The position numbers were made by a program, and so were the translations under genes. The notes under the pieces were generated by a model. The model did no database searches. It saw nothing but the letters and a program-made list of their open reading frames with translations, and was not told where the DNA came from. This document shows positions 49,124 through 61,151 of a stretch of 64,000 nucleotides of DNA, in pieces (positions within the stretch are counted from its first letter, which is position 1; each line of letters begins with the position of its first letter). Origin of the DNA: Clostridia bacterium (GTDB lineage Bacteria; Bacillota; Clostridia; Oscillospirales; RGIG577); NCBI GenBank assembly GCA_017513095.1, contig JAFWDJ010000024.1, forward strand, positions 6,073-70,072. Direction: 5' to 3'.

Positions 49124-50428
49124 ATGCATGATATAGTATCCAGGATAATTTTATATAAAAGCCTGCCGGAGTTCTCGATATTAACGGGACTTTCCGGGGT
49201 GTCGTCCGCGGCGCTTTCGGGATGCGGAAATAAGGACGCTTTGAGAATAAGATTCTACGATGAGGTAAGACGCATTCTTGAGCTTGCGTCGAAATACGGC
49301 TTTGACAAAAATCTGTGGCACGATTTTCTTTCGTATCTTCTCATAATGGACGAAAATCCGCTGAGCCTTTCGTGCGAGAAGAACTCCGCGTCGCTCGGCA
49401 GCATGGCGCGCTTTGCCGAAAACGACCATCTCGCCTTCTGGCAGCTTTTCAATTACGATTTCGCGTTGCTCGAAGGTGCGCTCGGCGCCGACGTATTCTC
49501 TGTGCTGCAAAATTACGTTTCGCCCTCCGCCGGTGACTTTATGTACGACCGCGCGATAAGCGAAAAGGTCCGCCTTCTGTCGGACGCGCTTTCCGAAGCC
49601 GCGGACGCGCAGAGCTTTTCAGAGCGCATCGTAGCGTTCTACCGTCGTTACGGCGTGGGCTCGTTCGGCATGAACAAGGCCTTTCGGTTCGATACGGATT
49701 TAAACGGGAATATCGCATTCAAGCCGATAAGCAATATGGTGAAGGTCTCTTTTTCGGATATCATCGGCTATGAGATACAGAAAGAGAAGCTTATAGAGAA
49801 TACGCGCGCCTTCGTTTCGGGCAAGCGCGCGAACAACGTGCTTTTGTACGGTGACAGCGGCACGGGCAAATCGACAAGCATAAAGGCCGTCGTAAACGAA
49901 TACTACGCCGACGGACTGAGGATGATCGAGATATACAAGCACCAGTTTCGGGATTTGTCGGCGCTCATATCGCGTATAAAGCCGCGCAATTATAAGTTCA
50001 TAATCTATATGGACGACCTTTCGTTTGAGGATAACGAGACGGAATATAAATTCTTAAAGGCGGTCATCGAGGGCGGCATGGAGACCGTGCCCGATAATAT
50101 TCTCATATACGCCACCTCCAACCGACGCCATCTGATACGCGAGATATGGCGCGACCGCAACGACGTCGAGGTCACCGAGGCCGAGGTCCATCATTCCGAT
50201 ACGCTTGAGGAGAAGCTGTCGCTCGCCCACCGCTTCGGCGTGACGATAAACTTTTCAAAGCCCACGCGGGCGCAGTATATGGATATCGTATCGAAGCTTG
50301 CCGAGAAGAACGGCCTGAAAATCGACGGCGCGGAGCTTAAAAAGGAAGCCGACAGGTGGGAAATGGCCCACGGCGGCTTATCCGGACGCACGGCTCAGCA
50401 GTTTATCAATCATTTATTGGGGAAATGA
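49124..50428 (+). CDS. DUF815-type ATP-binding protein (AAA-like)
   Basis: 434 aa. Walker A GDSGTGKST and Walker B IIYMDDLSF. Resembles the DUF815 family. Confidence 0.7.
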   Translation: MHDIVSRIILYKSLPEFSILTGLSGVSSAALSGCGNKDALRIRFYDEVRRILELASKYGFDKNLWHDFLSYLLIMDENPLSLSCEKNSASLGSMARFAENDHLAFWQLFNYDFALLEGALGADVFSVLQNYVSPSAGDFMYDRAISEKVRLLSDALSEAADAQSFSERIVAFYRRYGVGSFGMNKAFRFDTDLNGNIAFKPISNMVKVSFSDIIGYEIQKEKLIENTRAFVSGKRANNVLLYGDSGTGKSTSIKAVVNEYYADGLRMIEIYKHQFRDLSALISRIKPRNYKFIIYMDDLSFEDNETEYKFLKAVIEGGMETVPDNILIYATSNRRHLIREIWRDRNDVEVTEAEVHHSDTLEEKLSLAHRFGVTINFSKPTRAQYMDIVSKLAEKNGLKIDGAELKKEADRWEMAHGGLSGRTAQQFINHLLGK

Positions 50429-50557: not shown

Positions 50558-51328
50558 TTAGCGGCCGCCGTATTCGCTGCCATAATAGAGAACTTTTCTG
50601 TTCTCGATCTTACGATGATTAACGTCAATAATATATTCGTTTGAATATTGAGCCATCCAATATTCGCCAGACAACTTGCGATTAAGCAGTTTGTCCATCT
50701 CTTCTGATAGATATTCATAATTTGAGTTCCAAACACAAAGTTCTTCGCCGCTCAGTTCAGAATCGTTATCGTTGGCAGGCAGCACGGGATCGGATTTTAC
50801 GTATTCAATCAAGGCATGCAGCTTGTGTGATTCCCTACCTTCGCCCTGCTGTTTATAAAACTCTTCAAAAGAACTCAACAAATCATCGCATTCGATCCAC
50901 ATTGCAGAGTCGCCTGAACCGTACTTGGAATTCCGGATTACGATAGTTTCCAGATTATTCGCCGATATCCCTTGCTTTTTACAGTAATTGAGAAAACGGT
51001 TTATCTCTTTAGGAACCGCGTCTTGTAGCGGTATTTTTGGATATTCTCCATCTTCATCACATAATCCTTCAATGATTGCGGCGCTGAACAGCAGCTCGCA
51101 TAATTCTTCAAGGCTTTTTGCTGTGGATAATGATTTGCCGCCAAAACAGATCTCGCCGTTTTTAACTTCAGGAATAAGGTAAATGCTCTCCGCCGCTTCA
51201 TCTCCCCCATCTTCAGGGCTGACAGCATGCCAAAAATCCGCCATTTTCTTATTCTCGTCAATCAGATATATCTCCAGAATATAGCTTGCACTGCTCGAAT
51301 TGGTCACAAAATCCGTGCGTATTTTCAC
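50558..51328 (-). CDS. FVTNSSS-motif protein, paralog 3 (unknown function)
   Basis: 256 aa. GTG start after GAGGA. N-terminus MKIRTDFVTNSSSASYILEI is shared with the ORFs at 51988-52815 and 55027-55698. Confidence 0.75.
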   Translation of the reverse strand: MKIRTDFVTNSSSASYILEIYLIDENKKMADFWHAVSPEDGGDEAAESIYLIPEVKNGEICFGGKSLSTAKSLEELCELLFSAAIIEGLCDEDGEYPKIPLQDAVPKEINRFLNYCKKQGISANNLETIVIRNSKYGSGDSAMWIECDDLLSSFEEFYKQQGEGRESHKLHALIEYVKSDPVLPANDNDSELSGEELCVWNSNYEYLSEEMDKLLNRKLSGEYWMAQYSNEYIIDVNHRKIENRKVLYYGSEYGGR

Positions 51329-51465
51329 TTTAGGTCCTCATTTCTTTATTGAAATATTGATAAAACCAAGCACGGGGCAACGGCTGGTCCTTGAATATTA
51401 TTATATGCTGCCGCCCTTAAGACAGGCAAATCCTTTGCCAAAAACGCGCTCTCTCTCGCGGCGTA

Positions 51466-51618
51466 TCACCGTTTGTCTGCGGCGATATAAATATCGGGAG
51501 CTTTCGTATAATTTTTACGTGAGAGGTTTTGCAAAGCGCACCTTATGCAGTTCACCGGGAAACCGCAGCTCGGGCACACGCCGTCCTCCATAGGCGTACC
51601 GCAGCGCGGACAATCCAT
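51466..51618 (-). CDS. Mini zinc-ribbon protein, copy 1 (50 aa, absent from the ORF track)
   Basis: MDCPRCGTPMEDGVCPSCGFPVNCIRCALQNLSRKNYTKAPDIYIAADKR. GGAGGAG RBS 5 nt upstream. The first 24 codons are duplicated at 55749-55853, with mostly synonymous differences. Confidence 0.65.
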   Translation of the reverse strand: MDCPRCGTPMEDGVCPSCGFPVNCIRCALQNLSRKNYTKAPDIYIAADKR

Positions 51619-51635
51619 ATTTACTCCTCCTTTTC
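51547..51635 (-). repeat. About 89-nt repeat (RBS + zinc-ribbon coding start), copy 1
   Basis: About 90% identical (7 mismatches in the 72 coding nt by manual alignment) to 55782-55870. Confidence 0.8.
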
Positions 51636-51987
51636 TTAAAAATAATGCTGTTGTCGGTATATTCGTGTGAGCTTTGAATTATTATAATCAAGTGTTTTTA
51701 CACTGATTTTGCTGATATTCAACTTTGTATCCTGATATCCGCCTCTTATTCTTTTTAGGCTGCTGTATTTAGTAAACCTTATGCAGTAAAGAGACGATCG
51801 TTATTATATAATTGCTGCTTTTCTGTTCTCTCTATACCTTTGAGCACTTCTTTTCTTAACAGTCCGATCCACCGGAGCAGTTTTTTTGAAAAATCGTAAG
51901 CATAATTGCCGCGTTAAACAAATCATGGGTCTTCCGGTTGCGGCAGTTTCGGCCGCTTATTTAAGAAATTCTTCGATGGGGCGCAAT

Positions 51988-52815
51988 TCACACCCCCGCG
52001 AGCCAATCGAAAATCATCTCGAAATCATTTTCCGAAATTATAGGGATGTTAAGCTCCAAGGCTTCTTTTATTTCCGCAGTAGTAGATTTCGGATCGTTGG
52101 TTATTAAATAGTCAACATTTCTCGAAATCGTACTAACGACAGTACCGCCGAACGCATCGATAAAATCTTCTGCATCTTCTCTATAAACGCAATTTTCAGC
52201 AATAAAAAATCTTTTGCCTTTAAATGCATGTATATCTAAGCCGCTTGTCTCACTGAAAACGCTTCCGCTGCGCATATGCAAACAAATGCTTTCCCATTCT
52301 TCTTCCGCACTTCCATCGAATTTTTCATATACGTGCGGTTTGACTTCTTTGGTCAAGAGTTTTACCGTGCCGCCATAACGCACGAATTCTCCCCATGCTT
52401 TGTGTGTTTGGGTAATGGTAATGAACGAAATGTCTGATGTGTTGAAAAAAGAAGATCTTAAGGCGCTTTCAAAATCATCAAGGTCTTTAGTCATTTTTTT
52501 CAAAAAATCATCATCATATTTTTGGCTTAGTTTTTTTAAGCTTTCATTAGGACATTCTTCGTCGCTTTCCGGGTCAGTGTAATCTAAAAGCGTAACAGAA
52601 TCAGTCAGTGCTTTTGCCAAATCGGAAACAGAATCGATGCCGGTCAAAGCTTTCAGATTTGCCACATTAAAGCTTGCTTCACCGCCGCCATATGTATAGG
52701 TATCTGTAGGATCGATCTCGACCCACACTTTTTTATCATTTGGACCCATAACTTCGATTACGACGGAAAAACTGCTGCTTGAGCTGTTTGTCACAAAATC
52801 AGTTCTGAATTTCAT
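51988..52815 (-). CDS. FVTNSSS-motif protein, paralog 2, fused to a C-terminal BRCT domain
   Basis: 275 aa. N-terminus MKFRTDFVTNSSSSSFSVVIEV. C-terminus FKGKRFFIAE...GGTVVSTISRNVDYLITND...NIPIISENDF aligns with the LigA BRCT in this window. Confidence 0.8.
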   Translation of the reverse strand: MKFRTDFVTNSSSSSFSVVIEVMGPNDKKVWVEIDPTDTYTYGGGEASFNVANLKALTGIDSVSDLAKALTDSVTLLDYTDPESDEECPNESLKKLSQKYDDDFLKKMTKDLDDFESALRSSFFNTSDISFITITQTHKAWGEFVRYGGTVKLLTKEVKPHVYEKFDGSAEEEWESICLHMRSGSVFSETSGLDIHAFKGKRFFIAENCVYREDAEDFIDAFGGTVVSTISRNVDYLITNDPKSTTAEIKEALELNIPIISENDFEMIFDWLAGV

Positions 52816-52838
52816 GTTGAATCTTCCTTTCCGTTAAA

Positions 52839-53915
52839 TTATTTTGTTCTTTCTTCGCTGCCGCAGAAGACGATTTGTGGCATAAGCGGGCATCCGCCCA
52901 TGCATAAGGCTTTTTTTTCGCAGCCGGGGCAGGCCGCGCGCATTTTATCGCGGAAACGCTCGAAGGGCTCGCTGTTCCACGCGTCTTCGATTGAAACTTC
53001 TTCGCCAAGCCGTACCTCATAGCGTTTATTCTGGTCGAAGGAGCACGGCACCATGACCATATCCGCGCCGATGTAGCAGCTGAAGCGCCCGCCCTCGCAC
53101 GTATCGAGAGACTCGGGCATGATGCGTTTGCAGAAGTTCAGCGCGCCGGGCACGTTGCAGGAGTCCATGCCCACCTTGAATGAATGGTGCTTGTCTACCT
53201 GAGAAAAGAACTTGGCCACGCGGGGATCGTTAACGTCCAGCACGTTTGACTGTGACCCCTGTCCCGCCGGCTTGTGCAGAAGAAAGATCACCGCGTTGAT
53301 TCCCTGAGGAAAGTCGTCTCGCTCGAGCCTGTCGATGGCCTCGTCGATGCTGTTCCGGCCGAGTACGTAGTGGATATTTGTCTTCACGCCCGCACAAAGC
53401 AGCATCCGAACGGCGTTTAGTGTATACTCGCTTCGATACCAGCTTACAGCGACTGCGCCGCAATACTTTTTGCAGAGAGCGGCAATTTCCGGCGTCATGC
53501 CGTAGCCTGAGGTCGTGAAGTTTGGTACAAGGCAGTTTTCCCGGCTGATGCGCAGCAGGTCTTCAAAATGTTCGTGCTGATCGGGGTCGCCCCTGCCGCC
53601 CAGCGCAAGCTGGTTGCAGCGGCCGCGGCACTGCTTTGCAATCAGACGGAAGTTTTCAACCGTCATATTGGGCTGCTCCACCAAAAGACCGCTCTGATAG
53701 CACCCGATGCCGGCCTTTGCGCAGAGACCCGTTCTGCCGTGGATGCAGTGCCCCATAACACCGACGTCGATAAGATGCGGAAACGACGCCATAAACGGAT
53801 CGACTCCGGTGTCGCGCCCGTTTTCGTCAAGCACGCCCGTGCGTATATATGCGCCCGTGTCGGTGTCAAAGGCGGATTTAAAATGATATTTCTTGTCGTC
53901 GATTATGTATTTCAT
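52839..53915 (-). CDS. Radical SAM/SPASM-domain enzyme with non-canonical N-terminal Cys spacing
   Basis: 358 aa. CIHGRTGLCAKAGIGC (Cx7Cx6C) where CxxxCxxC is expected. GGE-like ALGGRGDP and TNG-like NFTTSGYG. SPASM Cys pattern CEGGRFSCYIGADMVMVPC...CPGCEKKALCMGGCP. Confidence 0.75.
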   Translation of the reverse strand: MKYIIDDKKYHFKSAFDTDTGAYIRTGVLDENGRDTGVDPFMASFPHLIDVGVMGHCIHGRTGLCAKAGIGCYQSGLLVEQPNMTVENFRLIAKQCRGRCNQLALGGRGDPDQHEHFEDLLRISRENCLVPNFTTSGYGMTPEIAALCKKYCGAVAVSWYRSEYTLNAVRMLLCAGVKTNIHYVLGRNSIDEAIDRLERDDFPQGINAVIFLLHKPAGQGSQSNVLDVNDPRVAKFFSQVDKHHSFKVGMDSCNVPGALNFCKRIMPESLDTCEGGRFSCYIGADMVMVPCSFDQNKRYEVRLGEEVSIEDAWNSEPFERFRDKMRAACPGCEKKALCMGGCPLMPQIVFCGSEERTK

Positions 53916-53971
53916 TTATTCAAATCTCCCTCGTTTTCTTTCCGATATATTCTCTGCCGCCCTTTTTTGTT

Positions 53972-55012
53972 TCATTCCTGAGTCGAATCAGACGGCGTCA
54001 GATACTGCGCGATAAACTCCTGCTCGCTGATAATAGGAATGCCGTCTGATTGTGCTTTACGTATCTTTGTTGTGCCTGAGTCCGGAAAATTGGTGATAAG
54101 AGCAGTCGTTTTGGAGGATACGCTTCCGCTCAGCTTTCCGCCGTTATGGAGAATTATCTCTTTTAACGCATCCCTGCTTGAAAAATTGAACAGATCGCCT
54201 GTGACGACAAAGGTCTTTCCCGAAAGTTTTTCAAATTCTCCTAAGAGCGCTGCATTAAGCCCTTGAAAGGAAAAAGATATCTTTCCCGAAAGCTTTTCAG
54301 ATTCTCCGGATGAAATGTTTACGGCCTTCTGTTTTTTCGGTTTTTCCGGCGGAACATAAAATACTTCGTTTTCGGGATAATGAATTTCGATAGTTTTGTA
54401 AGGAGCGGTCAGCCGTTTCTTCGGGTAAGGTTTGGAAGGCACGATTTCATCTGAGCACATTTGTTTTTTTCCGTCAAAAAGCACGTAGTCCTGCCTCTCC
54501 CACATGGGCTTTTCTTTAAACTCGTAAAGCTTCCCTTTGATTCTGAAGCTGTCCTCAGTCGGATCGTGAATAATACTCCATCTGTCACGAGCATAAAAAT
54601 CACACGTGTCAATGTAACGCATAACGGTAACAGAAGGATATCCGCTCTCAGAGTACGCAAGGTAGACAGTTCTGTTTTTCCAGTCTTCCGCGAAAAATAC
54701 CGCCTTCATATATGGATAATTTTCCAGCACATAAGGCACATGTGCGCTTTCGCATTCAAATTGAGCAATTCCATCGCATAACGTGTCTATTATCTTCCCG
54801 GGATTATCGTTATCGGGCCAGATTGTCCTGACCGCATCCAGTACGTCGAATTCCAATCCTCTGAAAACAGCCCCTGAGAAATAAGCAGTTTTCTCATATT
54901 GCTCTTTTGCGGCGGCGTCGGTAGAACCTGCTGTAAACGGGCACATCCTGCCTTCCGAAGTAAGCCTTTCAATAAATGCGTCTTTCTTTTCTTTTGCAGT
55001 ACTGTAATTCAT
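53972..55012 (-). CDS. Unknown N-terminal domain + C-terminal BRCT domain protein
   Basis: 346 aa. C-terminus LSGKTFVVTGDL...GGKLSGSVSSKTTALITN...GIPIISEQEF closely parallels the LigA BRCT (FTVVVTGTL...[18 protein letters not shown]...[10 protein letters not shown]). Confidence 0.8.
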   Translation of the reverse strand: MNYSTAKEKKDAFIERLTSEGRMCPFTAGSTDAAAKEQYEKTAYFSGAVFRGLEFDVLDAVRTIWPDNDNPGKIIDTLCDGIAQFECESAHVPYVLENYPYMKAVFFAEDWKNRTVYLAYSESGYPSVTVMRYIDTCDFYARDRWSIIHDPTEDSFRIKGKLYEFKEKPMWERQDYVLFDGKKQMCSDEIVPSKPYPKKRLTAPYKTIEIHYPENEVFYVPPEKPKKQKAVNISSGESEKLSGKISFSFQGLNAALLGEFEKLSGKTFVVTGDLFNFSSRDALKEIILHNGGKLSGSVSSKTTALITNFPDSGTTKIRKAQSDGIPIISEQEFIAQYLTPSDSTQE

Positions 55013-55026
55013 TATAATCCCCCCTG

Positions 55027-55698
55027 TTAAACCAAATCAAAATCTGATGTATCAAAGTATTCGCCGGTTCTCAGGTTCAGTCGTTTTATCTCTACGCCGC
55101 TTACGCGTCCCGGACCATATGAGCTGCACAGACGTTTTGCGAGCGTTTCCAAAGACCGACCGCCCCAATTATAACGACATACAGCCGCATTTCCGAATGA
55201 TTCTCCAATTGCGTCCGAAACTGTATTGATGTATGTTACCATTTCTGCTTCGGCACGCATTTTTTCTATTCCGGTCTGGGCTTTAAGATACTTTTGGGCC
55301 AGTTCAATGAGTATTATGTCGTTGTCTGCAATAATATCCGCCATCTCTCCCCATGCGTCGTAGCGTCGCTTCACCGTTATTTCGACAATATCCCGAACGC
55401 TGTTGAACTTAGTGCATGCTTCTCTTATAAATCTTTCCTTTTTACGGCGCAGCGGGTATGAGTCCGTGCTTTCCCAGTAATCATGAATTGAGCCTGCAAG
55501 CCATGTCGCCAGCTCGTTCACGGAAGAAAGGTGAGAATTGATGTTTTTCAAATCTCCGTTAAAAACCATTGTGGAGCCTCCGTCTGAGGTCTGCCTGTTC
55601 TCCGAAATGCTGACATATCGATTTGGCGAGCTGATCATAACCTCCACTGTAAAATTGCTTGAACTGGAATTTGTCACAAAGTCTGTGCGTATTTTCAT
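55027..55698 (-). CDS. FVTNSSS-motif protein, paralog 1 (unknown function)
   Basis: 223 aa. ATG after GGAGG. N-terminus MKIRTDFVTNSSSSNFTVEVMI. Shares an I-x-I-x(n)-WGE block with paralog 2. Confidence 0.75.
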   Translation of the reverse strand: MKIRTDFVTNSSSSNFTVEVMISSPNRYVSISENRQTSDGGSTMVFNGDLKNINSHLSSVNELATWLAGSIHDYWESTDSYPLRRKKERFIREACTKFNSVRDIVEITVKRRYDAWGEMADIIADNDIILIELAQKYLKAQTGIEKMRAEAEMVTYINTVSDAIGESFGNAAVCRYNWGGRSLETLAKRLCSSYGPGRVSGVEIKRLNLRTGEYFDTSDFDLV

Positions 55699-55748
55699 TA
55701 TACCTGCCTCCTTGCCTTTCTAAATATGCTGTAAAACCGTGTTTTCTC

Positions 55749-55853
55749 TTACGCTTTGTCCTGAACTTTTAATTCTGCGTGACAATTCACCGGGAAACCG
55801 CAGTTAGGGCAAACGCCGTTCTCCATAGGCGTACCGCAGCGCGGGCAATCCAT
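55749..55853 (-). CDS. Mini zinc-ribbon protein, copy 2 (34 aa, absent from the ORF track)
   Basis: MDCPRCGTPMENGVCPNCGFPVNCHAELKVQDKA. GGAGGA RBS. Lies 50 nt upstream of paralog 1. Confidence 0.65.
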   Translation of the reverse strand: MDCPRCGTPMENGVCPNCGFPVNCHAELKVQDKA

Positions 55854-55870
55854 AAGTATTCCTCCTTTTT
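55782..55870 (-). repeat. About 89-nt repeat, copy 2
   Basis: See 51547-51635. Confidence 0.8.
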
Positions 55871-55953
55871 GGTTAAAAATGCGGCAATTTAGCCTTAGTA
55901 TTTATTTTGTATCATCGTCCGTGAGCGCATCTTCTTCATAGAGGCCAAGGGAT

Positions 55954-57285
55954 TCAAAGCTTTTTCAGCATTTCTAACGCATTACGGTCGCCGCCCTCAG
56001 CGCCTCTCTTGATCCACGCCTTTGCAATAGTTTCATCTCTCTTAACACCGTCTCCGCGACCATACATAAGTCCCAGGTTTGTCTGGGCCTGCGGAAATCC
56101 CAGTTCTGCTCCCCGCCGGTACCACTGAACCGCCGCCGCTTTGTTGACTGCAACGCCGCGTCCTTTCTCATAGCACAAGCCTAGCATCCACATTGCTTTC
56201 GCACTGCCTCCTTCTGCAGCTTTTTTTGCCCATCGGATGCCGTCCTGATAGTCTATCGCGCTGTCTCCGTCGCTGATGCAAATGCCAAGAGATATATACG
56301 ATTCCGCAATATCCGTCTGCGCGTTTATATCCCCGCTCTCTGCAACGGTTTTCCGTTCGAGGATCGATCGGATTATTTCTGTTAAATTCAGCGCATCATT
56401 ATCTCCGGCTTCAGCCGCCCGGGATATATACTCTTCGGCTTTTGCCAGATTTCGCGGGACGCCGAGTCCCCTTTCGTACATCAGCCCTATGTTGAAAATG
56501 GCGTCTCTGTCATTACGTTCTGCTAGACGATCAAACCAGAGCTTTGCTTTCCTGTAGTCCTGTTTCAAACCATTTATCCTCTTGAAATAAGAGATCGCAA
56601 GATTTGTCATAGCATAGATGTTTCCATACGGAGCAAGGCGCATGGATTCTTCCAGCGTTGTCGGTCGATATTCCTCATTTTCCCGACCGTCAGTGCTTTC
56701 CGCAATTGTATTTGATAGTTCAATCGCAATATTCACCAATCCCTTTTCGATCAGATTGACGCCGAGTGCGGAGTAATACGCTTCGGAAATCGCATCTGAA
56801 TAAATAATCAGATGGTTATCCGAAGCAGGAAGCGCAGACAACGCTTTGATCGCCGCAGGCAGAAAATCCAGTTCCCGTTTCTTTCCCAGCTTCAAGGAGA
56901 GATCGCCCTCCCATGCGGGAGCCTGTCCTTTGGCACGGACAGTATGCAAGCTGCATCCATGTTCCGTAATCGCAAGAGCATAGAAGATACAAGCCAGCGT
57001 TTTTGAGATCTCCTCCTTCGATGGCATTGTTTCCCGCACATAGGCGCTCAAAGCAATAGGGATGCGATCGAGGGTATTGTAATCTAAAGCAAAGCATTGA
57101 TCCTGCCCAAGCGCCTGAATTTCCGATTGCAGAAAGAGGGACAGGTACCGTCCCATGATCGCCTCTCCCTGTACGGCAACAGGCTGTTTCGGTAGCTGCA
57201 ACCAATGCTCTTTGTGTAATTCGTATTGATTTAGTATTTTCTCTATCGCTTCGTTTGGGGTCAGAAGGGACATCCATTCTCTCAT
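55954..57285 (-). CDS. Sel1-repeat (SLR/TPR-like) protein
   Basis: 443 aa. The C-terminal half holds several Sel1 repeats (AIFNIGLMYERGLGVPRNLAKAEEYISRAAEAG; AMWMLGLCYEKGRGVAVNKAAAVQWYRRGAELG; AQTNLGLMYGRGDGVKRD...). Confidence 0.8.
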   Translation of the reverse strand: MREWMSLLTPNEAIEKILNQYELHKEHWLQLPKQPVAVQGEAIMGRYLSLFLQSEIQALGQDQCFALDYNTLDRIPIALSAYVRETMPSKEEISKTLACIFYALAITEHGCSLHTVRAKGQAPAWEGDLSLKLGKKRELDFLPAAIKALSALPASDNHLIIYSDAISEAYYSALGVNLIEKGLVNIAIELSNTIAESTDGRENEEYRPTTLEESMRLAPYGNIYAMTNLAISYFKRINGLKQDYRKAKLWFDRLAERNDRDAIFNIGLMYERGLGVPRNLAKAEEYISRAAEAGDNDALNLTEIIRSILERKTVAESGDINAQTDIAESYISLGICISDGDSAIDYQDGIRWAKKAAEGGSAKAMWMLGLCYEKGRGVAVNKAAAVQWYRRGAELGFPQAQTNLGLMYGRGDGVKRDETIAKAWIKRGAEGGDRNALEMLKKL

Positions 57286-57376
57286 AATCTTACACCTCGT
57301 TTTAAGTAATTAAGCGCGATTCTCATCTGCATTAAAATCCGTCTTTTAGGTATTTCTGCTTAACCGGATAATATAT

Positions 57377-58231
57377 CTACTCTGAAACCAGAGTATCAAA
57401 ATATTCATCCTCGAATTCTTCTCTGCTCTTTATCCCCAGTTCTTTTATACGCTCCACCGCATTTTTAAACGATTCTTCATCTATTTTTACCGGGAATATC
57501 TCGGTAAACTCACTTAAACTGAGCTCAAACAATTTTCTCTCTCCAAACAATTCTTCAATAGAATCGTAGTAATAATTTTCATAATCATCACTATCGAATT
57601 CAAATAGTTTTTTGAACTTTTCATAAGAAAGTATGTCTGCAACATAATCGAAATAGGCAGAATCGAAATAGTCACTATCGGGGTCTGCCCATATCGTTAC
57701 CACTAACGGAATCATCGGCAGTGGGCCCGAATATTTGGTGTATGAGGAGAATGATTTGGTTTTTGGATCGTAAAACCTTCCCCAAATCCCTTCACTATCA
57801 TCATCTTCTTCATTCTCTTGGAGGTCCTCTCCAAATGGCTTGTAGTCGAAGCTTAAGAATAACCGTCCGTCCTTAAGCTCCGCATCTAAAGATTGTTTTG
57901 AACCGGGATCAAATCCTGAAATTGATCCTCTAAAATAACAGGTGGGCGCTGTGTCAGCAATTCTTTGGAAAAGGTCACAATCATCCTCGAGAAGACCGTA
58001 CCAGACTCCATACGGACCGCTGAGACCTAAAGACATTTCTCCCGATTTCCAGCATGTGTCTACTTCCTTTTCAGGATCGCCTATCGTTACATCCAAATAC
58101 CAGCAGTCGTGTTTTTCTCTGTATTGCTTTTTCCGATCATTTGCGTAATGCCTAAGCACCTTCATAACCTCCAGACACTCTTCTTTTGTTCCCTTAACGG
58201 TAATCACCGTTGTAAAATCAGCTGCTCCCAT
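57377..58231 (-). CDS. Acidic hypothetical protein (first gene of the low-GC cluster)
   Basis: 284 aa. GGAGG RBS. Asp/Glu/Tyr/Phe-rich C-terminal half. About 40% GC in a spot count. No family recognised. Confidence 0.65.
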   Translation of the reverse strand: MGAADFTTVITVKGTKEECLEVMKVLRHYANDRKKQYREKHDCWYLDVTIGDPEKEVDTCWKSGEMSLGLSGPYGVWYGLLEDDCDLFQRIADTAPTCYFRGSISGFDPGSKQSLDAELKDGRLFLSFDYKPFGEDLQENEEDDDSEGIWGRFYDPKTKSFSSYTKYSGPLPMIPLVVTIWADPDSDYFDSAYFDYVADILSYEKFKKLFEFDSDDYENYYYDSIEELFGERKLFELSLSEFTEIFPVKIDEESFKNAVERIKELGIKSREEFEDEYFDTLVSE

Positions 58232-58496: not shown

Positions 58497-58536
58497 ACAA
58501 AAAAGAAGTGCGGCCGATTGGCCGCACCCTTTTTGA
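58497..58536. terminator. Bidirectional terminator between the PolC-like gene and the low-GC cluster
   Basis: Stem gtgcggcc(58508-58515)/ggccgcac(58520-58527), with an A-run upstream and a T-run downstream. Confidence 0.6.
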
Positions 58537-58578: not shown

Positions 58579-61151
58579 CTATCGATCCAAGCGTTTCGCC
58601 CTATACGGCACGCGGATGCTGCCGTTTTCGGGGACGAAACGCTCCGCGTGGGACGCGTTTTTGTCGGCAGGAAGGAATGAAATGCCAGAGTCGTAGCATT
58701 CCAGGGCAAGCTTCAGGATTTTTATACGTTCCGACTCAATACATCTTTCGCCCTGCTTTCCCACAATTCGATTATACTCCTCATAGGCGCGCGCGCGGCC
58801 TTCGGCGAGGACGCCGTAGAGGACGCCGTAATCGAATTTTGGCTCATCAAACTCATCAATGCACGAAAGAACGGCGGCAAAGAACGCGGCGGGGCGGTTT
58901 ATTCTGTACCATACCTTCCTGAGATCGTTTATCACGGATCCGATCGCGTGCGCCTTTGGAAAAAGATAATATATCTCCCTCATCGATGCGATTAACCGTT
59001 CGGGGACGCCGTGTTGCTTCATTATTTCAAGCTGACTTTCATCAAAGCCGTGACGCGCCCTGCCCATTCTCACGTATTGTGCTATGGAATACGCGTCTTT
59101 TCGTCCTACTCCGTATCTCATCAGAGAAAGCATGACGTCCTCGCGAAACGCGATAGGCCCGCCGCAGTCGGCGCACGCCCCGATAAGCTCTCCGGGATCG
59201 TCGGAGCGGTCGAAGACGCCGTGATCAAAGCCAAAGATATTTACAAGGTCGGAGAATTTTGTCGGCTTTACGGCGGAGATAAATCTTTTAAAACTCTCCG
59301 AGCCGAAAGAAATGCCCTCAAGACTTGCGGCGCCGAAATACGAGGCGAAATCTATATCGCCAATATCAATGCTTTCTGCCGGCACGCCCGAATACTCTTC
59401 CATAAGCTTAAGCTCCGAAAAAAGCGTAAAGTCGTACATACATATTCTTTCAAGTGGGAGATAACGACAATCAATAAGCGTTATAGGCTTGACTTTGCCG
59501 CAAGAGCGTGACAGATACGTGTACCGTGTCGGTGAAAAGTCGGATATATCATATCCCCGGGGAACGATGAGAAAGGCTCCGGGGTGTCGGCCGCCCGCTA
59601 CATGCACCGACGCCATTTTTTTGACAATGCGTTCTCTTTGTCCGAGGCCTATGGACGTATTCGTTTCTTCGCAGTATTTATCTACCAGATCCGAAATACA
59701 CCGCTCGCCCATCCGTCCGTAAATCGTAGACTCCGAACCGGCGAGAACCGTGTTGTTCCTGCCGAACACCTCTTCAAGGCAATCAAGAATTTCCGTTCGG
59801 ATATCTTCGGCAAAGTTAAAATAAAACTCAGGTGATATGTCCCCTTCGTACCCGGTGAAGAATTCGCACGGGAGATTATGCCCGTCGCCCGTGTAAGGTG
59901 TGCCGCAGTCGGGACAAAGGCGCCTTTCGACGCCGAAGGTGACAAGATCGTATCCCGAGGCGCACTCCGTCTCATCGACGAATTCTACCCTTTTGCAATT
60001 CGGGCAGAAATAATGCGGCGGCAGAGGATTTGTCTCCGTTATGCCCAAAAGATACGAAACGAACGAACTTCCGACGCATCCGCTAAGCTTGTGAATATAG
60101 CCTTTACCGCGGCTTTTGTCGGACATTTTCGCCGCAAGCAGATAGTGTGACCAGCCGTCCGAACTGTCAATCTTTTCGAACTCGTCCGCTATGCGCAGGC
60201 GTATGATATCCGGCGCCGCTTCGCCGTATTTTTCGGCGGAGGCACTCAGAGCGCGCGATATGACCTTGCTTCGCGCGTAAGGAAGACAGAGCGTCGGCTT
60301 TTCAAACGGGAGCGGGTCGAAGCTTTCGACCGCTTCCGCGATGAGGTTCGTGTTTTCTATGACCGCCGTTTCCGTCATATCCCCAAGGAACGCAAAATCG
60401 CGAAGCATCTCCTCGGTCGACTTCATAAAGGCGATATTTTCATCCTGCCCGTCCTTCTGATGGAGGATCTTAAAGCAGAGCTCGTCTTCCTTTGTTATGC
60501 AGTTCGCGCGGCTTACCGCGGCGGGATGTTTTCCGATGCTCTGAAGGACGCGGACTGCCGCGAGTGCCGCCTCTTTGAGCGCGGCCCCGTCCGCTTCCTC
60601 TGACGAAACCGCCGAAAGCGCGCTTTTTGGGGGCAAGGTGATCTCTGCGTAATCGACGCCGTCAAATAGGACGAAAGCTCGCGCCGGACGTCAGCTTCGC
60701 TTTTATTTACGAAGCTTTGTATATGATCCCACGTGCATTCCCTGCCGATGAGAACGTCCTCTTTGTATTTGAGCACCAAATCCCAATCGATGTACGGCCG
60801 TTGATCGTTTTTAAGGTCCGTCGCCGCTTTTCGGTAACCGGCCGAAATGATAAGGTACACGTTTCTTAATCCGTGCCTCGTTTTGGCAAGCAGTGTTATA
60901 AAGAATTCGCCGCCGTTTTTGTCATGGCATAAAAGCCGCACGCCGAAAATGGCCTTGATTCCCGCATTCGCGCTTTTAACGGCTTCTGAAAGCTTTAAAA
61001 CGGAATGCACGGAGTCGAAATCTGTTATCGCCACGGCGTTTGAGCCGTTTTTTACTGCGAAATCCACGACGTCATCGGGCGTTATCACCGTTTCCCGGTA
61101 TCCGAAGCAGGAGCTTACGCCAAGCTCGATATGTCTTTTTTCGTTTGCCAT
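58579..61151 (-). pseudogene. Truncated, frameshifted PolC-like (PHP + Pol III alpha) paralog
   Basis: Two overlapping ORFs (60513-61151 and 58579-60636). PolC-type zinc module PPHYFCPNCKRVEF...CPDCGTPYTGDGHNLPCEFF. Colinear with PolC to the C-terminus (YLFPKAHAIGSV...ISFLPAD). No exonuclease, OB or N-terminal domains. The reading frame changes near 60671-60690. Confidence 0.7.

Follow-up and report, generated by a model that had tools for sequence, protein, structure and literature searches.

Enzymes of the radical S-adenosylmethionine (SAM) superfamily ligate their SAM-binding [4Fe-4S] cluster through a CX3CX2C motif, and accepted members with non-canonical Cys spacings do occur. Among the systems described so far, those closest to the locus reported here are built on radical-SAM enzymes that also carry a SPASM region. 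The anaerobic sulfatase-maturating enzymes (anSME) combine a radical-SAM domain with a full SPASM region and modify a short conserved motif, C/S-x-P-x-R, in whole proteins by chemistry on the C-beta of Ser or Cys. The SPASM maturases of RiPPs (peptides that ribosomes make and that are modified after translation), such as SuiB, CteB, PqqE, SkfB and the triceptide and FxS-type cyclophane enzymes, are encoded beside at least one substrate gene, and their substrates carry an invariant recognition sequence followed by variable sequence; at cyclophane sites, aromatic-x-(Thr/Ser) triplets are found. A further parallel is offered by the internal proteins of phage T4, which are polymorphic, carry an N-terminal capsid-targeting sequence of ~10 residues that is cleaved by the prohead protease, and are packaged in the capsid. 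Here we describe a locus in a stretch of 64,000 nt from a Clostridia bacterium (assembly GCA_017513095.1, contig JAFWDJ010000024.1, positions 6,073-70,072 of the forward strand; hereafter the window), in which three genes encode proteins with a common 16-residue sequence at their extreme N-terminus, the tag, close to a gene for a radical-SAM-like/SPASM enzyme that is the conserved partner of the tag. Many different proteins are functionally coupled to one co-encoded enzyme through this tag, and we put a probability of roughly 55% on the tag being the site that this enzyme both recognises and modifies.

The three tagged genes lie on the minus strand, each preceded by a Shine-Dalgarno-like purine run, and their products share the N-terminus MK[IF]RTDFVTNSSS. 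Tagged protein 1 (55027..55698, 223 aa) founds the query family and consists of the tag (MKIRTDFVTNSSSSNF, codons 1-16, 55651..55698) and an alpha/beta domain of ~200 aa. In tagged protein 2 (51988..52815, 275 aa) the tag (MKFRTDFVTNSSSSSF, 52768..52815) is followed by a protein-1-like domain and a C-terminal BRCT domain (PF00533, E 2e-10; residues 198-263, 52027..52224). Tagged protein 3 (50558..51328, 256 aa), which has a GTG start, is a remote relative of the other two after its tag ((M)KIRTDFVTNSSSASY, 51281..51328). A 12-residue match repeated three times in 64 kb does not arise by chance, and the window holds no further copy of the motif. A sequence-only reading of this DNA had singled out these three open reading frames (ORFs) and their common motif, and had argued from the switching of Ser codons between codon families that the motif is conserved at the protein level and not through recent gene conversion. 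All three ORFs are present as it described them, and the Ser codons are exactly those it gave (TCC AGT TCA / AGC TCA AGC / TCG AGC AGT). Pairs of tag-coding sequences differ at 12-18 of the 42 nt that make up their first 14 codons, with 7-8 synonymous and only 1-2 non-synonymous codons. Since these differences are mainly synonymous, selection acts on the peptide and not on DNA or RNA, which rules out both recent gene conversion and a DNA-level signal as the source of the conservation.

The sequence-only reading further proposed a second shared block and a common domain of about 150 aa, and these proposals are upheld in part. The AWGE block is found in proteins 1 and 2, protein 3 having YGSGD instead. 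Upon removal of the first 20 residues, protein 2 still matches the protein-1 family profile over ~111 columns (hhalign probability 96.9%, E 2e-10) and protein 3 gives a weak match to the protein-1 family (63%, E 7e-5), with no BLAST similarity of protein 3 beyond the tag. Thus, the domain is common to the proteins of the window but does not belong to the tag at large, which is carried by at least 55 BLAST-unrelated groups of proteins (see below). That the family is an unrecognised one stands: the N-terminal parts of the three proteins have no match in Pfam, NCBIfam, PADLOC or the PHROGs of known function, and a full-length search with protein 1 returned 81 metagenomic homologues, all unnamed. 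The AlphaFold2 model of protein 1 is of high confidence (pLDDT 93, pTM 0.86), and its comparison with the PDB using Foldseek gave no match at E<=0.001. The fold begins at a strand formed by residues 13-24, and residues 1-10 are the sole low-confidence block (mean pLDDT ~52); in this model, the first ten residues appear to be placed flexibly ahead of the cargo fold.

The consensus of the tag is MK[IVF]R-x-D[FY]VTNSSS[S][SN][FY], and a synthetic peptide for it would be MKIRTDFVTNSSSSNFTVEV. In homologue alignments of 25 and 59 sequences, with a mean column identity of only 27-30%, residues 1-14 are invariant, T5 nearly so, and G117 of the AWGE block is the other invariant position. M1, K2, I3, R4, D6, F7, V8, T9, N10 and S11-S14 are invariant among the 59 full-length homologues (mean column identity 30%), which confirms that the motif spotted in the window is conserved in its family. 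A tally of 315 distinct N-termini, in which several positions are preset by the selecting pattern, so that the two alignments are the unbiased measure of invariance, shows position 5 to be free, position 3 hydrophobic, position 7 F or Y, positions 14-15 tolerant of A, T, N or C, and position 16 F or Y. Lineage-specific variants of the tag exist, viz., MKIRTGFVTNSSSYSS, in which G replaces D6 and which is placed upstream of the enzyme, and MKFRTDFVTNSSDSSF, in which D replaces S14; the variant loci are L024:9393-10001, L034:9514-9975, L065, L083 and L084. In the NCBI record of this metagenome-assembled genome (MAG), protein 1 is annotated from a downstream start as a protein of 180 aa (MBR2743357.1) and the tag is lost, and public annotation may be hiding the motif systematically.

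A profile of the tag alone, searched exhaustively against 1.84 billion cluster representatives (50% identity) at E<=1e-3, matched 8,395 representative proteins. The tag begins at residue 1 in 129 of the 136 newly listed top matches, and the other 7 have upstream start calls or are close variants, e.g. MKIRLGFVSNSSSSSF. This search supersedes a word-indexed search with the tag profile, which returned short fragments only, an artefact of candidate selection. When 275 non-identical tagged proteins were stripped of the tag and compared, they fell into 55 BLAST-unrelated groups, with 25 singletons. The cargos range from 127 to 1,073 aa in genomes and from ~90 to >1,000 aa across all tagged proteins. 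A Pfam scan of 94 tagged proteins found LRR_5 (17 proteins), LRR_8 (14), BRCT (9), PQQ_2 (2), DUF285 (2), HIRAN (1) and TIR_2 (1), the others having no match. The motif thus behaves as a portable N-terminal tag and not as the hallmark of one domain.

The partner enzyme (52839..53915, minus strand, 358 aa) is assigned to SPASM proteins by PF13186 (E 5.6e-7; 30.2 bits against a cut-off of 21.5) and, at the threshold itself, by TIGR04085 (27.0 against 27). Its SPASM auxiliary-cluster region (residues 273-351, 52863..53099) has the invariant Cys residues C329-x2-C332-x5-C338-x3-C342 (CX2CX5CX3C) and a trailing C351. In place of CX3CX2C there is a loop with the spacing C57-x7-C65-x6-C72 (53700..53747), whose three Cys are invariant across the alignments and presumably bind the [4Fe-4S] cluster; the spacing is different again in phage homologues, being CX7CX2C in T4-like phages and C-x-C-x3-C-x3-C in some others. 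Two stretches, GGRGDP and NFTTSG, seem from their sequence to stand at the positions of the radical-SAM GGE and ribose motifs. The window enzyme gives no PF04055 match at E<=0.1, and among the 120 homologues listed, just 2 have a precomputed match to this family. None of the NCBIfam equivalogs scores close to its cut-off, that for anSME, TIGR03942, giving 13.2 bits against a cut-off of 349, and with sequence profiles the likeness to anSME is confined to the SPASM part (E 0.14). The homologues available all have an identity of 79% or more, so that the alignment is shallow and the AlphaFold2 model poor (pLDDT 59). Foldseek searches initiated with this low-confidence model found 60 PDB matches at E<=0.001, and all 50 that were listed are enzymes of the radical-SAM fold. 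The best of them, over the full length, are the anSME structures (PDB identifiers 4k36-4k39; E ~1e-6, TM-score 0.50-0.56), followed by AbmM, viperins, TigE, DesII, SuiB, CteB, PqqE and SkfB. Judged from the model, the enzyme, a SPASM protein with a non-canonical three-Cys loop, probably has the radical-SAM fold. The base composition of its gene is also peculiar: the tagged and accessory genes of the cluster have a GC content of 0.40-0.49, against 0.51 for the whole window, and the enzyme gene, at 0.558, is the exception in this low-GC cluster (50558-58231), which may reflect either very strong constraint on its amino acids or an origin that is different or more recent.

The coupling of tag and enzyme emerges from the comparison of loci. 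A scan seeded with the enzyme across 185,579 species genomes found 232 related loci, of which the best 80, with an enzyme identity of 72-88%, were kept for neighbourhood counts. The hosts of these 80 are Oscillospiraceae, Lachnospiraceae, Acutalibacteraceae, Eggerthellaceae, Atopobiaceae, Erysipelotrichaceae and some Bacteroidales MAGs, and include two cultured carriers, [Clostridium] aminophilum KH1P1 and Acetatifactor muris DSM 23669. One to four tagged ORFs accompany the enzyme at 76 of the 80 loci, and at 61 of the 80 no more than 150 nt separate the stop codon of the enzyme gene from the start of a tagged ORF. When seeded instead from tag-only matches, the enzyme adjoins the tag in 3 of 4 metagenomic places. 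The genomic adjacency of tag and enzyme is thus near-obligate, and their functional coupling is well supported. Between loci, the enzyme is 70-81% identical, as against 35-41% for the adjoining tagged proteins, and this many-to-one arrangement, one enzyme with many tagged proteins, would explain why both tag and enzyme are frozen. No other conserved gene family was found around the enzyme or around the phage arrays described below. Neighbours at the related bacterial loci include SbcCD-like genes, a BrxL-like ATPase, WYL and DUF4143 ATPases and large helicases, as well as, at one locus and as judged by eye from the sequence, type I-C-like cas genes.

The tag is not confined to bacterial chromosomes. 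In IMG/VR viral contigs, most of them 30-350 kb long, a back-translated tag pattern matched 42 stretches, which contain arrays of 2-7 small tagged ORFs (~90-260 aa). An enzyme homologue stands beside the array in ~30 of the 42 and is 46-62% identical to the window enzyme (79% in two). Both members of the pair fall into phage protein families with no assigned function: phrog_7397, which the tagged phage proteins match solely via the tag, and phrog_7293, which is matched by the enzyme of the window with an E of 6.6e-18 and by phage copies with values down to 4e-29. Among 93 phage tagged proteins there is no conservation beyond residue 18. The neighbours in the viral stretches are accessory genes, such as those for polynucleotide kinase, NAD synthetase, DNA methyltransferase, a Ro-like RNA-binding protein and reverse transcriptase, and not head genes. 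A tblastn search with a phage tagged protein against cultured phages returned nothing, possibly due to low-complexity masking. More distant enzyme homologues, 30% identical, were found in 171 records of T4-like phages (Straboviridae) of Klebsiella, Enterobacter, Cronobacter and Citrobacter (for example, Citrobacter phage Maroon, MH823906.1, 91492-92643, our locus L131); these have the CX7CX2C loop and a reduced SPASM region, and we looked for tagged ORFs near them and found none. The module is mobile, occurring in low-GC islands of gut and rumen Clostridia, Coriobacteriia and some other lineages, and in large phages.

Some features of the phage arrays may be recorded separately. At L103:4930-5976 and at three other viral loci, the gene immediately upstream of that for the enzyme encodes a reverse transcriptase (phrog_1423, E 8e-110), whose N-terminus resembles those of the reverse transcriptases of diversity-generating retroelements. 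A Cys-rich tagged subfamily recurs in the arrays (…SSSSSY[IV]CEICG…), and in a subfamily of small phage tagged proteins (L101, L122) the C-terminus is [FY]-[SN]-H-H (…VGVYNHH, …AKRFSHH, …VTRYSHH), which may be a second conserved terminal motif.

Based on the coupling, we hypothesize that the tag is a substrate. Of the three ideas that the sequence-only reading offered for the motif, viz., a phospho-Ser ligand of BRCT domains, a phosphate-binding loop and a target of the adjacent radical-SAM enzyme, it is the last that the comparative data favour. The flexible first ~10 residues, with K2, R4, D6, F7 and V8, would dock as an extended strand on the enzyme, and the 5'-deoxyadenosyl radical would then abstract a hydrogen atom from T9, N10, one of S11-S13 or F7, ahead of the first strand of the cargo. 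By analogy with anSME, the chemistry could be oxidation of a Ser C-beta; alternatively, as in some RiPP maturases, it could be a short side-chain crosslink, either an F-V-T cyclophane, the F7-V8-T9 of the tag being similar to the triplets of known cyclophane sites, or an ether. Leader and core would be combined in a tag of 16 residues, and every cargo would thereby receive the same chemical feature; in the window, one enzyme gene would serve three tagged genes.

Several observations weigh against this hypothesis. The anSME substrate motif C/S-x-P-x-R is absent from the tag; the enzyme has neither CX3CX2C nor a PF04055 match; and its resemblance to anSME is soft, as it depends on a low-confidence model. 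Low pLDDT is common at N-termini and is no proof that the tag is flexible. On one tag-seeded contig, there is no enzyme within ~8 kb upstream and 3.5 kb downstream of the tag. The T4-like homologues without tagged neighbours indicate that the enzyme family can work without the tag. Lastly, coupling to the enzyme is no less to be expected of a tag that does nothing but dock.

This last point leads to the main rival explanation, in which the unmodified peptide tethers the shared enzyme to interchangeable binding or sensor proteins that steer it to DNA, to a nucleotide or to a host or phage protein. The many-to-one arrangement, in which tag and enzyme are both frozen, speaks for it, the recognisable cargo domains are mostly binding modules (LRR, BRCT, HIRAN), and viperin-type enzymes, which modify nucleotides, are among the fold matches. 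The tag-less T4-like phage homologues keep this explanation alive, as a tag-independent substrate may exist. However, most phage cargos are small and diverse and have no recognisable binding domain, a full SPASM region is typical of enzymes that modify peptides or proteins, as does anSME, the top fold match, and a motif that serves docking alone would not usually hold small polar residues in an invariant series such as T-N-S-S-S. On balance, we consider docking without modification unlikely, while giving it more weight than any of the explanations that follow.

The tag could also be a targeting signal that sends proteins to the capsid, to a secretion route or to a compartment, with the enzyme playing a separate role. 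Its strict position at residue 1 and the arrays of small polymorphic ORFs in large phages would suit such a signal, and the LRR_5 and DUF285 cargos belong to families that are often surface proteins, yet direct reading of their sequences reveals no signal peptides here. The arrays are, however, located among accessory and nucleotide-metabolism genes and not near head or protease genes, the same tag is found on BRCT, HIRAN and TIR proteins in chromosomal islands outside phages, and no conserved protease or transporter accompanies the loci. Targeting would also leave the near-obligate adjacency of the enzyme unexplained, and we regard it as improbable.

We consider it slightly more improbable still that the tag is a structural or catalytic element, that is, the N-terminal strand and Ser loop of one fast-evolving domain that binds phosphate, a metal or another ligand, of which the phosphate-binding loop of the sequence-only reading is one form. 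The domain shared after the tag by the three window proteins is in line with it, as is the chaining of many bacterial and many phage members in single-linkage clustering. Nevertheless, residues 1-10 are not packed against the fold in the high-confidence model of protein 1, conservation stops at residue 18 in the 93 phage members, the tagged proteins form 55 BLAST-unrelated groups, and no solved structure or profile matches. Least probable by some way is the idea that the cluster's BRCT domains bind the Ser run, which ends in S-x-x-[FY], in a phosphorylated form: BRCT domains are enriched among cargos and neighbours, and S-x-x-F resembles the ligand of the tandem BRCT domains of BRCA1, but BRCT is present in only 9 of the 94 scanned proteins, whereas the enzyme is nearly always there, none of the phage arrays was seen to include a BRCT protein (no Pfam scan having been made of their tagged ORFs), no kinase is conserved nearby, the domains are single and LigA-type and not the tandem pairs that read pS-x-x-F, and among the Ser positions of the tag it is S14 and S15 that are conserved least.

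As for the biological role of the module, the cargo domains (LRR, BRCT, HIRAN, TIR), the neighbouring genes, the low-GC island and the phage arrays suggest, by circumstantial evidence, a part in conflicts between phages and their hosts. In its broadest form, to which we give slightly less than even odds, our proposal is that an enzyme circulating among phages and hosts of the gut and rumen (Firmicutes, Actinobacteria) modifies a universal tag on more than 8,000 families, small phage proteins as well as LRR, BRCT, HIRAN and TIR proteins of bacteria among them, and that both sides use these proteins in their conflict. Should the tag be a substrate, radical-SAM modification of whole proteins would be defined by a very short portable sequence at the N-terminus and applied to thousands of unrelated cargos, and SPASM enzymes would have a new class of target beyond sulfatases and RiPPs. 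The 16-residue tag could then also serve enzymatic protein labelling, and many "hypothetical" genes of gut and rumen bacteria and of large phages would acquire a functional handle. The pairing yields a clean, testable prediction, which concerns residues 1-16.

In the window, the tagged genes and the enzyme gene belong to an apparent operon on the minus strand. Its first gene encodes an acidic protein of 284 aa (57377..58231), which the sequence-only reading had tentatively proposed as a remote relative of the tagged family; we reject this on an hhalign probability of 0.4%. It is followed by a Sel1-repeat protein of 443 aa (55954..57285; PF08238, E 2e-38) on the same strand and in the same low-GC island, which is not kept as a partner at other loci. 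Between tagged protein 1 and the enzyme lies the gene of an untagged protein of 346 aa with a C-terminal BRCT domain (53972..55012; PF00533, E 5.9e-14); with the BRCT domain of protein 2 it bears out the earlier observation that such domains are encoded in the cluster and that one of them is fused to a tagged protein. The 346-aa protein itself was tested as a remote relative of the tagged family and proved to be unrelated. The 660-bp gap between the genes of proteins 2 and 3 contains a 50-aa ORF (51466-51618, minus strand) with two CxxC pairs (MDCPRCG...CPSCG), which is zinc-ribbon-like and is also called as a gene in another assembly. Convergent to the gene of protein 3, at the edge of the low-GC stretch, is a DUF815 AAA ATPase (49124-50428, plus strand, E 1.6e-94), which is not conserved beside the module at other loci. 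On the other side, a strong bidirectional terminator-like hairpin (58506..58529; 10-bp stem, 7 GC pairs) parts the cluster from an upstream PolIII-alpha-like gene (58579-61151, minus strand). This gene is split into a PHP-domain ORF (60513-61151, 212 aa) and a DNA_pol3_alpha ORF (58579-60636 as the longest ORF, called elsewhere as 615 aa) in different frames, which points to a frameshift around 60640-60660. On another assembled contig the gene is called with this split as well, and the gene, which is outside the tag cluster, is either a pseudogene or the product of an assembly error. Scanning the cluster against Rfam revealed neither a riboswitch nor a leader, and no tRNA or obvious integration site was found near it.

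Literature searches with the motif string and with combinations of SPASM, phage and defence returned, within the library searched, no description of the tag or of the pairing, and none of the curated families and PHROG functions describes them. The FxSxx/SPASM peptide system is different, as it uses C-terminal peptides (PMC7159879). With anSME, the best solved-structure match over the full length of the low-confidence model, the enzyme shares a full SPASM region and, by that model, a radical-SAM fold, as well as, on our hypothesis, a short conserved target in whole proteins and not in small peptides, and the invariant Ser triplet of the tag would suit anSME chemistry on Ser or Cys; the differences are the CX7CX6C loop in place of CX3CX2C, a target at residue 1 that is unrelated to C/S-x-P-x-R, and cargos from dozens of non-sulfatase families in place of sulfatases. 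The likeness to RiPP maturases extends to the fold match, to the adjacency of enzyme and putative substrate genes and to an invariant sequence ahead of a variable one. However, the tagged "precursors" are proteins of 90 to >1,000 aa, one of which has a confidently folded domain, and no conserved protease, transporter or recognisable RiPP recognition element domain is found around the loci, so that the pair is not a RiPP system in the usual sense; unlike a RiPP precursor, the tag is probably leader and core at once, in only 16 residues. With the capsid-targeting sequence of T4 the tag has in common only the layout, in which small polymorphic phage proteins, encoded in arrays, each start with a short peptide that is invariant, whereas its sequence is another one, it is coupled to a radical-SAM enzyme, it does not occur near head genes, and it is also found in bacterial islands on large multidomain proteins. 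In T4-like phages themselves, the phrog_7293 members, 30% identical to the window enzyme, occur without tagged neighbours. In concept, then, the system is a variant of the known theme of a radical-SAM/SPASM maturase and its cognate target, and what sets it apart is that whole proteins bear a universal tag at the N-terminus, that the cluster loop is non-canonical, that the repertoire of cargos is very large and that the system is spread through phages.

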